A stretch of DNA of 64,000 bases from an uncultured bacterium (GCA_964596185.1 CAZQUE010000001.1:6545-70544); one strand, 5' to 3'. Positions 20,767-32,018 are shown, counted from the stretch's first letter. Numbers and translations: made by a program. Notes: generated from the sequence alone by a model not told the origin.

Positions 20767-20811
20767 GCGCAAGGATGCGCTAAAGGACGACAATCAAGGA
20801 GGAAACATATG
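20767..20811 (+). promoter_or_regulatory. Putative CsrA-binding 5' leader of flagellin 2 (GGA hairpin plus GGA overlapping the SD)
   Basis: GCGCAAGGATGCGC, a perfect 4-bp stem with AAGGAUG loop (20767-20780), then CAAGGAGGAAACAT-ATG. Confidence 0.55.
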
Positions 20812-23052
20812 TCGTTGCGAATCAATCAAAACGTTCTTTCAATCAAAACCTATTCAAATCTTACTCAAACTAACAACCGGCTCGAAAAATCGATTTCGAA
20901 ACTAAGCTCAGGACTTCGAATCAACACAGCCGCCGACGATGCAGCCGGGCTGGCAATCAGCGAAAAAATGCGTCGGCAGATCAGAGGCTTGAACCGCGCC
21001 GCCCTCAATGCTCAGGATGGTATTTCCATGATCCAGACAGCAGAAGGTGCGCTCAATGAATCACAGAGTATCATGCAGAGAATGCGAGAACTTGCGATTC
21101 AGGCTTCCAACGATACACTTACCAGTAATGATCGCCTCGAAATACAAAAAGAGGTTAATCAGCTGCGCGATGAAATCGACCGAATATCGAATTCAACGGA
21201 ATTCAACACCAAAAAACTGCTTGATGGCAGCCAGTCGGCTTCAATTAGTTCTTCTTCAAAATTTGCCCGAGGCGTCGTGGTTGGCAACACAAATGGTGGT
21301 GGTGACTATCAGGTCAGCATTGCGCTTGTAAATGGCGGAATTTCTCAGATGCAGAGATCGCAGATCTTTACCGATGCTTCAAGCGGAGATCTGGCACGCG
21401 GAGACACCAGACTTGAAGACATTGCTCAGTTCTTCAATGAAGACGGTATCTCTTCAGTATCAAGTCCTCAGAAACTAACCATATCAGGGAATTCGGAATC
21501 AGTTGAAATAACCGTTGACGGCAAAATGACACTCGATCAACTTGCGGCAGCTCTTCAGCAGGCCTTAAGCGGTAGCAGTGGCCTTGGTATTGATAATTCA
21601 AGTTCTGGAGTAGTGAGCACTGCCCAGACCGGTGTAAGCGGCATGGGTGGGTATCTGGAATTGGTTTCTGGCTCTGCGGGAGATCGTGGTGACTTTTCTA
21701 TTGCCGGCCCTCAGGATCTGATTGACTCTCTTGGTCTTTCGGTGGTTAGAGAATCGGTCAACTCTCTGGTAGACGTGACTCTCAAAGATGCACAGGGTAA
21801 TTCCCGAACTACCAGAACCAGCAGTGATCGTGCCTATGGCCTGCTGAACGGCATTGATGTTCAGTTCCAGTCTCAGGCAGCCCAAATTGCCGGTTCTGGA
21901 GGCATTGAAAGTGGCCTGCGAATCTCGGTTGCCGGTGGTCTTGACTTCACTCTTGATGCTGGCGGCGGAAGCGTTGACATAACCATAGCTACAGGAAACT
22001 GGACGATGGAAGGCATTGCCAGGTCAATCAATCAGCAGATCGAAGATGAGATTGCTGCAGCTGCAGGCGGTGCTGATGAAGCTTTGCTGGGCTTGAGTGC
22101 TTCGGTTGTCGATGGAGAAATAAGGCTTTCATACGAACCGCAGTTGGTATCAGTTACCTCAAGCATAATTGATGTTTCGGCAGCCGCACCCGACAATGCT
22201 CTTGGTATGGTGGATGGTTCTTATAGCGGGTTCGTTGATGCCAGCAAAGACAGCGATTTCGTTATTCAGGGTCTGGGAACATATCGAGACGATGTTGCTA
22301 ACGGTACAGCCGTTACCTTCACTCTTACCGATGGAGATGGAGATGCCTCGGTATTGAACTCATACGCAACCACCGATGACCCGGAAGTTGCTGACATGAA
22401 AGAGATCAAAGAATTCCTTGCGAGTGCCAATGCAACCTTTGATGCTGATGATGTTCAGATTCGTGCCGATATGGTTAATGGCTCGTTGGCATTCACTGCC
22501 ACACGAGTTGGTCAGGAAAACCAGAACGGCGGTGCGCCTGTTGCAAGTAGGGTAACTTTGGCAGTTAACCAGGGGTTTGCTGAAACTCAGTTTGGTCTTA
22601 AAAACGGTACTAAATACGGTAGCGGCGATACCAACTTCCGGCTTCATGTTGTTGACAACAAGCCCCAGTTCCAGATCGGTGCCGACCCTGGACAGAACAT
22701 GCAGGTATCGATGGGCAACATGTCATCCAACGCTCTGGGTGTCGACAATCTTGATATGACTACAGTAAAAGGTGCTCAGGAAGCTTTGGTCAGAATCAAC
22801 AAAGGTCTTGACATGATTTCTGCTGAAAGATCAAAACTTGGTGCCTTTCAGAATCGTCTGGAATACGCCATTAACAACATCAGAAACACTTCAAGCAATC
22901 TGACTTCAGCTGAAGCTCGCATCAGAGACGCCGATATCGCCATGGAAATGATCGAGTTCACTCGCAATCAGATCGTGGCTCAGTCGGGCACCGCAATGTT
23001 GGCACAGGCAAACATGCTGCCACAAAGTGTTCTTTCGCTTCTCGGTCAGTAA
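20809..23052 (+). CDS. fliC: Flagellin, paralog 2 (747 aa)
   Basis: N-terminus [18 protein letters not shown]...[30 protein letters not shown] and C-terminus ...[19 protein letters not shown], with a variable centre. Confidence 0.9.
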
Positions 23053-23080
23053 TCGCTGACGGCCTTTTTTCCGCATTAAG

Positions 23081-23127
23081 ATCTGCCCGGGCTCTACGGA
23101 GCCCATGGGCAGATTTTTTTCTTTTAA
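23081..23127 (+). terminator. Rho-independent terminator after flagellin 2
   Basis: ATCTGCCCGGGCTC-TACG-GAGCCCATGGGCAGAT hairpin followed by TTTTTTTCTTTT. Confidence 0.65.
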
Positions 23128-23178
23128 AAAGACATGTTACCCCTTAAAATATTGGATAAAAAGAAACGGGGTTAGATT

Positions 23179-29502: not shown

Positions 29503-31782
29503 TCTCTAAGGATAAATCAGAATGTGTTATCTCTGAAAACCTACGGGACACTGTCGAACACAGCCACTAGACTTGAAAAGTCAATTGGCAAGCTGAGTAC
29601 AGGCATGAGAATCAACAGTGCTGCAGATGATGCAGCCGGCCTGGCAATCAGCGAAAAAATGCGCAGACAGATTCGTGGGTTGTCTAGGGCGAAACTGAAC
29701 GCCCAGGACGGGATTTCCCTGGTTCAGACTGCAGAAGGCGCGTTGAATGAAACGCAAAGCATTCTGCAGCGTATGCGTGAACTGGCTACCCAGTCAGCGA
29801 ACGATACCCTGACCAGCAATGATCGTCTCGAAATTCAGAAAGAAGTAGTTCAGCTCAAAGATGAGCTGAACCGGATAGCTAACAGCACTGAATTCAATAC
29901 CAAAAAGCTTCTTGATGGTAGTCAAACAGCTTTGGTGAGTTCGAATTCAAAATCGGCAAATGCTCTGGTAAACGGTTCAAATATGCCGGGCAGTGGTGAT
30001 TACAATGTTAGCATCGCATTGATCCAAGGCGGAATCGCGCAAATGCAGCGCAGCCAGATTTTCACTAAAAATGATGGCAGTGGCGACCTTGCCGACGGCG
30101 TGACGCAGTTGCAGAGTATTTCGCAATTCTACGATGAAAACGGTGTCTTTGTTCTTGATACGCCGCAGATTCTAACTCTGCGTGGAAATGGCAATGAAGC
30201 GCAAATCAGTCTCGATGGTCAGATGACTCTTGATCAGTTGGCTGCAGGCATTCAAAACGCCATGGTTAGTGACAGTGGTCTTGGAATTGAAGGCAGCAAA
30301 ATTGCCACGGTTAACACTGCTCAAACTGGAATTTCTGGCGAAGGAGGCTATATCAAACTGATCTCTGGATTTGTCGGAGATTCAGGTGAATTCAGCTTTG
30401 CTTCTGATGAAAAAGTTGTTCAAGCGCTTGGATTGTCAATTTCGCGCGAAGCAGAAAACAGCCAGGTTGAGGTCAGTTCCAAAGACCGCTTCAACAATCT
30501 CAGAACTGTTCGTCTCGACGGGAACACAGCCATGGGCTTGCTTGATGGAATCGACCTTGAGTTTAAGTCACAATCAGCACAGGTTGCCGGAACAAAAGGA
30601 ATTGAGCAAGGTCTACACTTTAGTGCCGGACAGCAGTTTACCATATCTGTCAACTCTACCGATCTCGTAATCTCAATTGCAGGTGAAACGACATACGGAT
30701 GGACCATGGAAGGGATTGCCAGGTCAATTAATGATCAGATATTGACTGCAATAGATGGCGCCGATCCTGGTTTGAAGGGATTGTCAGCCTCTGTGGTAGA
30801 AGGTGAGATTCGTATAACCTACGAAAGACCGGCCTCTGTTGCGTCAACAGTACCTAACACTATTAAAATTGTGGCGACTAATTCTGACATTATTGGGTTA
30901 TCCGATGGTGATTACAGTGGCTTCGTTGACGCAAAGAAGGATACGGCCTATGCAAAATGGGGTTTCAGTCGATACGTCATGAGTAGCGTCCACGGAATCA
31001 CGGCAGCTTCGAACGTGGTTATCAGTGTTGGTGATAGTAATGGCCAGGCGACAATATCCATTATGACAACTCTTGGCAGTGCAACTGCCACTGTTTCTGA
31101 CATGGTATTGTTTTCCAGCTTTCAGGCAAATACTAACAATGCACTTGATAATGCTACGGTTTCGATCAGAGTTGATCAGGCTGGAGCAGCAATGGCATTT
31201 ACTTCTTTGAGGGTCGGGACTCTAAATGAAAACACCGGCACCAAAGACAGTATCGTCACCCTGGCGAATTTCTCAGTTGATGGCGCCGGTACTGATCCTT
31301 CGCGAGGTCTAAACGGTTTGTTCGGTCTTGAGGCTGCGACAGCCAAAGGCAGCGGTGATGCCAACTTCAAGCTACATGTCGTTGACCGGCAGGCACAGTT
31401 CCAGATCGGTGCTGATTCGGGTCAGACCATGAGTTTGAATCTGTCCAACATGTCGGCCAAGGCGTTGGGAGTCGATAACATCGACATGACCAATGTTAGA
31501 GGCGCAAACCGGGCAATGGGCATTCTAGACAAGGCTCTTGACCGAGTTTCGGCTGAGCGCGCCAAAATCGGGGCCTACCAGAACCGACTTGAACATACTG
31601 TCAGTAACATTGACAATATGTACAGCAATCTGGTGTCCGCTGAGTCGAGAATCAGAGATACCGATATAGCCATGGAAATGATCGAGTTCACAAAGCTTCA
31701 GATTATTTCGCAGGCTGGCACTGCAATGCTGGCTCAGGCTAATATGGTTCCACAGGGAGTTTTAGATCTGCTTGGCAGTTAA
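29500..31782 (+). CDS. fliC: Flagellin, paralog 5 (760 aa from the MSLRIN start)
   Basis: Conserved flagellin termini ([18 protein letters not shown]... / ...[19 protein letters not shown]). ATG at 29500 after GGAGGA. Confidence 0.9.
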
Positions 31783-31796
31783 ATAAGACTTCTTTC

Positions 31797-31836
31797 AAAA
31801 GCCGTTCCGGTTCGCCGGGGCGGTTTTTTTATTTTA
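31797..31836 (+). terminator. Rho-independent terminator after flagellin 5
   Basis: AAAAGCCG..CCGGTTCGCCGG..CGGTTTTTTT: GC-rich palindrome followed by a T7 run. Confidence 0.55.
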
Positions 31837-31972
31837 GCTGCTTTGCTTAAGTTTTTTTAGAAAACTGCCGTTAAATACTGACAGCAGAAAAATATTTCTT
31901 TCTGCAAATTACAGGAGGTGATAATTGAGACCTTTTTGACAATTGAATCGCAAAGGATGTAAGTGAGCCTGT

Positions 31973-32018
31973 CGCGCAGGGAAGCGCGAAAACAAGATTC
32001 AAGGAGGAATCAATTATG
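31973..32018 (+). promoter_or_regulatory. Putative CsrA-binding 5' leader of flagellin 6
   Basis: CGCGC-AGGGAA-GCGCG hairpin with a GGA loop at 31973-31988, then TTCAAGGAGGAATCAATT-ATG. Confidence 0.5.

Follow-up and report, generated by a model that had tools for sequence, protein, structure and literature searches.

The question raised by the locus described here is whether a bacterium with six flagellin paralogs controls them in common when their translation begins. The locus, a Riflebacteria gene cluster, lies on a stretch of 64 kb of DNA from an uncultured bacterium, called the window below. Five of its six flagellin genes (fla2 to fla6) and the transcript of orf63, flaG and fliD begin with a common leader in which the triplet GGA is offered at two sites, one in an upstream hairpin and one at the Shine-Dalgarno (SD) sequence. 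Judged by sequence and by analogy, these leaders are very probably CsrA-responsive translation-initiation regions of the type known from hag of Bacillus subtilis and flaA of Campylobacter jejuni.

Anatomy of the common leader

The upstream element, hairpin 1, has a short stem of 4-9 bp and carries A(A/G/U)GGA(U/A) in its loop, within the wider context CAnGGAnG. A preliminary description of the locus had assigned such a GGA hairpin to paralogs 2-6, which is correct for fla2, fla3, fla4, fla5 and fla6, but had placed it about 30 nt upstream of the gene; hairpin 1 in fact begins 42-52 nt before the ATG and its GGA lies 36-46 nt before it. The stem form GCGC...CGC given there is seen for example in fla3 and does not extend to fla5, whose stem (GCCUG.GC/GC.CAGGC) is not literally GCGC...GCGC. 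The second site is the sequence UCA(U/A)GGAGGAA, which each of the six leaders carries 8-10 nt ahead of its ATG, so that the second GGA overlaps the SD. It is part of a 16-mer, GATTCATGGAGGAATC, which is matched without error at 24291, 26911, 29481 and 34469 and with a single mismatch at 31996. The near-invariance formerly claimed for the SD sequence of paralogs 2-6 thus applies to fla3-fla6 (0-1 mismatch) and not to fla2, where the element CAATCAAGGAGGAAAC departs from the 16-mer by 4 mismatches and does not fold into a second hairpin. In the other leaders the 16-mer folds into hairpin 2, of 5-6 bp and the form GAUUC-AnGGAG-GAAUC. Its hexaloop holds the first GGA of the 16-mer, while its 3' arm and loop constitute the SD, 3-5 nt before the start codon. 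From the GGA of site 1 to that of site 2 the distance is 23-33 nt in the window.

The elements are the following (R1 is a covariance model introduced below):

20755-20761, + strand: extra conserved UAAGGAG before fla2 (alignment)
20762-20785, + strand: fla2 hairpin 1, loop AAGGAU, GGA at 20773 (sequence, folding)
20791-20806, + strand: fla2 SD site CAAUCAAGGAGGAAAC, unpaired, no hairpin 2; start codon 20809 (sequence, folding)
24265-24278, + strand: fla3 hairpin 1, GCGCA-AGGA-UGCGC (sequence, folding)
24290-24307, + strand: fla3 hairpin 2, UGAUUC-AUGGAG-GAAUCA, over the SD; start codon 24311 (16-mer match, folding)
26877-26894, + strand: fla4 hairpin 1, loop AUGGAA (sequence, folding)
26910-26927, + strand: fla4 hairpin 2 and SD; start codon 26931 (16-mer match, folding)
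29449-29470, + strand: fla5 hairpin 1, 8 pairs and one mismatch, loop AGGGAU (folding)
29480-29497, + strand: fla5 hairpin 2 and SD; start codon 29500 (16-mer match, folding)
31972-31989, + strand: fla6 hairpin 1, loop AGGGAA; additional conserved GGA at 31955 (sequence, folding)
31996-32011, + strand: fla6 hairpin 2 and SD, GAUUCAAGGAGGAAUC; start codon 32016 (16-mer with one mismatch, folding)
34447-34458, + strand: hairpin 1 of the sixth copy, GGCA-GGGA-UGCC, before orf63-flaG-fliD (R1, folding; conserved in contigs L001 and L007)
34469-34484, + strand: hairpin 2 and SD of the sixth copy; orf63 start codon 34490 (16-mer match, R1, folding)

The leaders of fla3, fla4, fla5, fla6 and orf63 adopt the two-hairpin fold as their minimum free energy (MFE) structure and equally as their centroid (z = -1.5 to -4.5), and the probability that a GGA is unpaired is 0.6-1.0 in these five leaders. 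The fla2 leader folds into hairpin 1 alone (z = -3.3). Burial of the GGA motifs in stems, named earlier as an outcome that folding might reveal, was not seen: they lie in loops in MFE and centroid folds and in the independent RNAalifold consensus, and the hairpin 1 loops AAGGAU, AUGGAA, AGGGAU and AGGGAA are unpaired in all three.

Such an arrangement is far above what chance would give. The observed number of 16-mers was reached in 0 of 100 shuffles. With a stem of at least 4 pairs to close it, CAnGGAnG is present nine times on the + strand of the whole window, always inside these leaders, and 0 times on the - strand (shuffles: mean 1.3, maximum 5). This strand preference bears on the idea that a dimeric transcription factor uses the palindromes GCGC...GCGC and GATTC...GAATC as DNA operators. 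Read as DNA, both are indeed inverted repeats, and both lie between promoter and gene. However, their confinement to the sense strand (9 versus 0) and the asymmetry of the conserved loops make a DNA operator very improbable. In addition, hairpin 1 offers a protein no conserved stem sequence to recognise, the start codon is fixed 3-5 nt away, and G-U is tolerated over A-C (35 versus 20), which mildly supports an RNA element.

Some further features of these leaders may be mentioned. An ATG within the 16-mer (CATGG), at 24296 and 26916, is in frame with fla3 and fla4, so mechanical open reading frame (ORF) calling sets the start of both five codons too far upstream; similar miscalls may lie behind database flagellins of 288-294 aa beside relatives of 281 aa. 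A purine box stands 85-105 nt upstream of the starts of fla4, fla5 and fla6 (about 26853-26866, 29391-29403 and 31912-31925; AGGGUGGUGGUAAG, AGGUGGUGAUGAG and AGGAGGUGAUAAU). It is complementary to the 3' end of the 16S rRNA, is loosely kept in orthologs and may represent a -10 region or else a stabiliser of the STAB-SD kind. Hairpin 1 was also considered as a terminator and rejected, as no U-tract follows it.

Conservation, covariation and distribution

Contigs related to the window belong to metagenome-assembled genomes (MAGs) labelled Candidatus Riflebacteria, Rifleibacteriota or Ozemobacteraceae. The same modules precede orthologous flagellins in ten Riflebacteria contigs (L001-L008, L010 and L011 of L001-L011). 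Together with the window these gave an alignment of 41 leaders, A2, in which CAnGGAnG and UCAnGGAGGAA are invariant and everything else drifts. RNAalifold on its own predicted both hairpins from it. Stem cells are 82% paired, versus 27-42% with a slid partner, and the covariation score of 0.243 (0.111 in shuffles) was reached by none of 500 shuffles. In hairpin 1, seven of nine pairs show changes on both sides. Pair 34-43 is intact in every case (GC29/AU7/GU4). The arms of hairpin 2 (GAUU and AAUC) are nearly invariant, the sole compensatory change being AAUUC...GAAUU, a GC-to-AU swap that L002, L005 and L008 show before their fla2 orthologs. The covariance model R1, built from A2 and run on the window without filters, found exactly six copies in the 64 kb (49-67 bits), with the next best match at 10.7 bits. 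An Rfam scan of 12000-36000 at E <= 1 placed no family on any leader; it returned a sub-threshold V_AS7 match in a coding region and a weak IMES-2 match.

To see how far the element extends, metagenome contigs were scanned for CAnGGAnG followed after 6-30 nt by GATTCAnGGAGGAATC. The matches listed, to which all of the following counts refer, comprise at least 120 stretches (L012-L131) with at least 143 copies. At least 91 of these stand directly before a flagellin gene and at least 17 before an ORF of 29-74 codons followed by flaG, while at least about 20 are orphans, with a flagellin leader following a few hundred nt downstream. The flagellins behind the leaders span several families, at least about 40 of them being a 281-aa FlaB of MIINHN type whose database relatives are labelled Spirochaetota; in front of these Spirochaetota-labelled flaB genes stand a CAnGGAnG hairpin and the 16-mer in identical form. 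The scan required the 16-mer itself, and the invariance of the 16-mer is therefore meaningful only within A2. Since only the loop of hairpin 1 was fixed in the search, its stem is a fair test of pairing. In the 121 unique leaders the three pairs beside the closing C-G are 95%, 89% and 84% paired, GC, CG, UA, AU and GU pairs all being used, and the stem overall is 79% paired versus 32-40% when slid and 47% when shuffled. Across the 143 copies the GGA-to-GGA spacing clusters at 22-30 nt though 18-42 nt was allowed, and in most the start codon follows 3-5 nt after the 16-mer. Three of our observations go beyond the preliminary description: the SD 16-mer is itself a hairpin, a sixth copy (34447-34484) precedes the flaG operon, and a near letter-perfect SD hairpin occurs in Spirochaetota-labelled genomes.

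A stem that varies around an invariant loop CAnGGAnG is the signature of sequence-specific loop recognition. The leader might nevertheless be thought of as an expression element independent of CsrA, with hairpin 1 as a 5' stabiliser against exonucleases and hairpin 2 as a structured, strong ribosome-binding site (RBS) for high flagellin translation. Flagellin mRNAs are abundant and stable, hairpin 1 may be near the 5' end, GGAGGA is a strong SD and the arms of hairpin 2 are conserved as sequence. A stabiliser, however, needs its stem and not its loop, whereas here the stem is free and the loop CAnGGAnG is invariant in more than 160 leaders, those of A2 and of the metagenome matches listed. Moreover, the loop equals the published CsrA consensus, the spacing is constrained, and fliW and csrA lie in the same cluster. 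We consider a CsrA-independent element improbable.

Least credible of all is that the leaders are a passive, functionless relic of tandem duplication or gene conversion. It is true that the paralogs are in tandem and that relatives hold shortened flagellin remnants which still have the leader (L004 9981). But the proteins of fla2-6 are 52-78% identical and their third codon positions 30-49% (first 300 nt), which is near saturation. In paralogs so old and diverged an invariant leader motif must have been kept by selection and not by recent copying: flanking leader and third positions have diverged around intact modules. The module also precedes an ORF that is not a flagellin gene and has no detectable flagellin ancestry, and it is common to unrelated flagellin families in other phyla. 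Covariation and the cross-lineage data thus contradict a relic. The remnant itself, an intact leader followed by a 65-codon, cut-off flagellin N-terminus (L004 9981-10198), is a decaying paralog.

Orphan copies of the two-hairpin leader occur in relatives (L004 6861-7416 and L002 6900-7270; also L005, L006, L008, L046, L063, L092 and L100). They are followed by short non-flagellin ORFs (45-66 codons) and lie between the fla2 and fla3 orthologs, with a tandem pair in L004; at this place the window has a methyltransferase gene. By eye no terminator was evident after the copies in the L004 and L002 regions, where no scan was run. These copies could be extra CsrA sites on a long 5' untranslated region (5'UTR), or decoys.

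fliW, csrA and a predicted checkpoint

Genes for the putative regulators lie in the same cluster, which reads as follows (coordinates from the gene map unless stated):

6947-8947, + strand: flgK
8982-12029, + strand: flgL
12052-12549, + strand: fliW (Pfam FliW 4e-39; best PDB match 5DMB_A, 1e-25)
12549-12821, + strand: csrA, 90 aa, FliW-type with C-terminal extension (Pfam CsrA 6e-25; best PDB match 5DMB_D, 3.5e-17)
12822-12982, + strand: fla1 leader, one (C/U)AUGGAGG site, which lies at the SD (12967-12975); hairpins 1 and 2 absent (R1, folding, orthologs)
12983-15583, + strand: fla1
15658-20420: redox/sulfur island
20809-23052, + strand: fla2
23179-24075, + strand: methyltransferase gene
24311-26611, + strand: fla3
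26931-29216, + strand: fla4
29500-31782, + strand: fla5
32016-34280, + strand: fla6
34490-34681, + strand: orf63, 63 codons (ORF ahead of flaG, its stop overlapping the flaG start)
34671-35051, + strand: flaG
35095-38073, + strand: fliD
38705-40648, + strand: Maf/MptE-like gene
40645-41073, + strand: fliS

Four further Riflebacteria genomes (L132-L135) keep the order flgL-fliW-csrA-fla1, and in these as in the window the csrA ATG overlaps the fliW stop (TAATG). In B. subtilis, translational coupling of fliW and csrA fixes their stoichiometry. The predicted CsrA keeps L2, L4, R6, V40, V42 and R44, as read from its sequence, and possesses the C-terminal extension. Its closest structure, aligned over residues 2-74, is the Geobacillus CsrA crystallised with FliW (5DMB_D), and that of the predicted FliW is the FliW of the same Geobacillus complex (5DMB_A). 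The earlier statement that fliW-csrA lie immediately upstream of the flagellins is accurate for fla1, while about 8 kb separate them from fla2.

By analogy with the known systems we infer that CsrA binds and represses the leaders, with a hierarchy of affinities, and that FliW relieves the repression. One CsrA dimer (encoded at 12549-12821) would clamp both loops and so bridge the two sites; clamping would freeze hairpin 2, occlude the SD and block the 30S subunit. FliW (encoded at 12052-12549), when free of unsecreted flagellin, would bind CsrA and the leaders would be released. The six flagellins may be FliW partners; in B. subtilis the D1-N and D1-C regions of flagellin bind FliW, according to hydrogen-deuterium exchange mass spectrometry. 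Under such a shared partner-switch checkpoint the five paralogs and flaG-fliD would be translated only during flagellin export. Because six transcripts would draw on one CsrA pool, the checkpoint would be collective.

The leader might instead be recognised by another factor (FliW itself, an FlbT/FlaF-like protein or a small RNA), the targets of CsrA lying elsewhere. FliW binds the hag leader weakly, and the invariant arms of hairpin 2 suggest extra contacts. On the other hand, no flbT or flaF was present among the 20 ORFs scanned between 6947 and 41073, both loops fit CAnGGAnG, and the same layout is experimentally CsrA-bound in three phyla. We therefore give such a factor little chance.

Several observations nevertheless weigh against a CsrA switch as just outlined. 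fla2 is without hairpin 2 and fla1 is without both hairpins. The arms of hairpin 2 are frozen in sequence instead of covarying, for which the simple model offers no explanation; pairing of the SD with the ribosome and hairpin formation alone do not account for it. That hairpin 1 lies within the mRNA we infer from its conservation; a scan for sigma-70 promoters gave 22 sites versus 21.6 in shuffles, with a sole consensus-like site before fla3 (TTGACC-16-TAATAT, 24226-24253). Finally, the effects of CsrA on flagellins vary by species, with an apparent up-regulation in Leptospira interrogans.

The absence of the two-hairpin design from fla1 is a property of the gene and its orthologs. As the preliminary description had recognised, this leader has just the SD-proximal site, UCAUGGAGG; R1 does not match it, and its fold is not significant (z = -0.12). 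In four Riflebacteria genomes (L132-L135, about 2330-2500) the same design is conserved: CTAAyG, about 17 nt, TCCGATG (sigma-28-like), a long-range GGG...CCC stem and AUGGAGGCA at the SD. A diverged two-hairpin copy was considered here and discarded, since R1 found no match with filters off and the four orthologous leaders are of a different design. Sigma-28-like -10 boxes (CCGATG or GTCGATA, then ATGTAGA) were seen by eye before fla1, fla2 and orf63, those similar to the fla1 box, CGAT(A/G)...ATGTAGA, being at 20648-20668 (fla2) and 34395-34416 (orf63). fla1 is the paralog in the position of hag and is the best conserved across the phylum (50-81% identity). By analogy with the affinity hierarchy of C. 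jejuni, it probably escapes the checkpoint or is weakly controlled. Five flagellin paralogs and a filament-cap and length-control operon would be placed under one post-transcriptional check, with fla1 outside. This leads to a hypothesis on filament composition, namely that fla1 would be made independently of the checkpoint.

The sixth copy of the leader stands before orf63, the stop of which overlaps the flaG start (34671) by 11 nt. An equivalent is at the same place in L001 (ORF 5445-5642) and L007 (ORF 5216-5413), where the length is kept at 63-65 codons and both indels are of 3 nt. The N-terminal half diverges fast, whereas the C-terminal 25 codons or so, which overlap the flaG start with the stop, are conserved. 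Metagenome equivalents have 29-74 codons, and one subfamily among the matches listed carries GE[LI]PxGRSHFP. The orf63 product had no Pfam match. A decayed 5' end of a flagellin gene was tried as an origin and rejected, local alignments to all six genes being no better than those to shuffles. The most economical reading of the sequence is that orf63 is likely to be a device for translational coupling to flaG-fliD.

In addition to these features the cluster has several peculiarities. The six flagellins are giant (747-866 aa), all with Flagellin_N and Flagellin_C domains and with conserved termini. Between fla1 and fla2 the cluster is split by the redox/sulfur island (15658-20420), which encodes a pyridine-nucleotide disulfide reductase-rhodanese (- strand), a thioredoxin and an 814-aa reductase-rhodanese-TusA-DsrE fusion. 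In L004 and L005 the 814-aa reductase gene lies just before the fla2 ortholog, in L132 and L135 it comes just after fla1, and in L133 and L134 it is absent. The match to V_AS7, a Vibrio antisense RNA (17995-18163, - strand; 53 bits where the gathering score is 90, E = 1e-7), is antisense to the 5' end of this gene and is most likely due to conservation of the coding sequence. A class I methyltransferase gene (23179-24075) lies between fla2 and fla3 and the Maf/MptE-like gene (38705-40648) between fliD and fliS; together with flagellins of 750-870 aa they hint at flagellin modification. A MAG labelled Candidatus Methylomirabilis sp. (L001 and L004; DYKG01000018.1 and DYKG01000022.1) has a flagellin cluster of Riflebacteria type, with the same gene order and flagellins 62-64% identical to fla3, so its label or binning looks wrong.

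Comparison with known CsrA systems

If the CsrA reading of the leaders is right, the FliW-CsrA-flagellin checkpoint, which has been proposed as the ancestral role of CsrA, would reach an uncultured candidate phylum. On the practical side, flagellin leaders of different phyla are recognised by the covariance model and the sequence pattern, from which an Rfam family could be started and start-codon calls corrected, because of the in-frame ATG inside the motif.

Gene order in the window, flgK-flgL-fliW-csrA-flagellin, is the same as in B. subtilis. In the hag leader, analysed by Yakhnin 2007 and Mukherjee 2011, two GGA stem-loops form the sites BS1 and BS2, about 24 nt apart with BS2 on the SD, and the change G-38A in the upstream loop abolishes control, as described in PMC7652899, PMC13443453 and PMC8523840. 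The hag RBS, AUAUUCAGGGAGGAAC (given as AUAUUCAGGGAGGAACAAAACAAUG by a published primer), shares the core UUCAnGGAGGAA with the window 16-mer. The likeness to the two-site geometry of hag, pointed out in the preliminary description, is therefore borne out, and extends to flaA: the upstream GGA is at -38 in hag and at -36 to -46 in the window, BS2 is on the SD, the core is shared and fliW is paired with csrA. The differences are that hag is a single flagellin gene whereas the window has multiple, that the stem of hairpin 2 is of about 3 bp in hag and 5-6 bp here, and that in the window it is fla1, which takes the place of hag, that lacks a two-site leader.

The closest published analogue is the leader of C. 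jejuni flaA, and comparison should not stop at hag. Its 5'UTR holds two ANGGA hexaloop stem-loops (CANGGANG) 21 nt apart, the second on the RBS, with compensatory changes in relatives (PMC4894983). CsrA, whose antagonist is FliW, also binds the flaG and flaB leaders, for which its affinity is lower (Dugar et al. 2016, PMC4894983). Paired hexaloops, position on the RBS, compensatory changes and the flaG and minor-flagellin leaders as targets of graded affinity all have their counterparts or predicted counterparts in the window. CsrA prefers GGA in a hexaloop, with the consensus RUACARGGAUGU from in vitro selection (SELEX), and the earlier claim that the loops match the CsrA consensus stands, as they fit both this and the flaA hexaloop motif. 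The published optimum distance between sites for bridging by one dimer is about 18 nt. The spacing of 23-33 nt in the window differs from the 21 nt of flaA. In C. jejuni the full design is on flaA only, whereas here it is on five paralogs and the flaG operon. The flaG copy of the window is placed about 180 nt upstream, before a short overlapping ORF. The phylum is another one, the flagellins are giant, and the system is known here from sequence alone.

Spirochaetal and clostridial flagellin leaders (Borrelia flaB, Leptospira flaB1-4, Clostridioides difficile fliC) offer a further comparison. Leptospira flaB3 and flaB4 show a GGA hexaloop that precedes the start codon by 6-7 nt, and putative sites are described for several flaB paralogs; in C. 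difficile fliC, BS1 is TGACAAGGATGT and BS2 is on the SD. Unlike the window leaders, the published Leptospira sites are single and diverged from the 16-mer, and regulatory outcomes vary among species.

Repeated GGA hairpins are also a feature shared with the sponge RNAs of CsrB/RsmZ type, and relatives of the window have tandem orphan copies on the upstream side of a flagellin gene (L004 6913, 7153 and 7391). In contrast to the sponge RNAs, however, the orphan copies precede short ORFs and have no terminators evident by eye. No stand-alone multi-hairpin small RNA was found in the window, where all six R1 copies are at a fixed distance from a start codon and there are no extras. Control of the BarA/UvrY type has been reported to be anti-correlated with fliW. 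One might speculate that a single ancient, near letter-perfect RNA element (GAUUCAnGGAGGAAUC in Rifleibacteriota- and Spirochaetota-labelled MAGs, core UUCAnGGAGGAA in Bacillus hag, no Rfam family) has detached copies that act as RNA-level controllers of CsrA in FliW-type systems. The orf63 copy would bring flaG-fliD under the checkpoint and the orphan tandems would be decoys titrating CsrA. We regard this as unlikely; if true, it would answer with yes the open question whether FliW and RNA antagonists ever cooperate.

At the level of sequence, then, the window leaders have every feature that characterises the family of CsrA-repressed flagellin leaders. The regulatory design is a known one, shared with hag and flaA; new are its presence in an uncultured phylum and its extension over an unusually large flagellin family.

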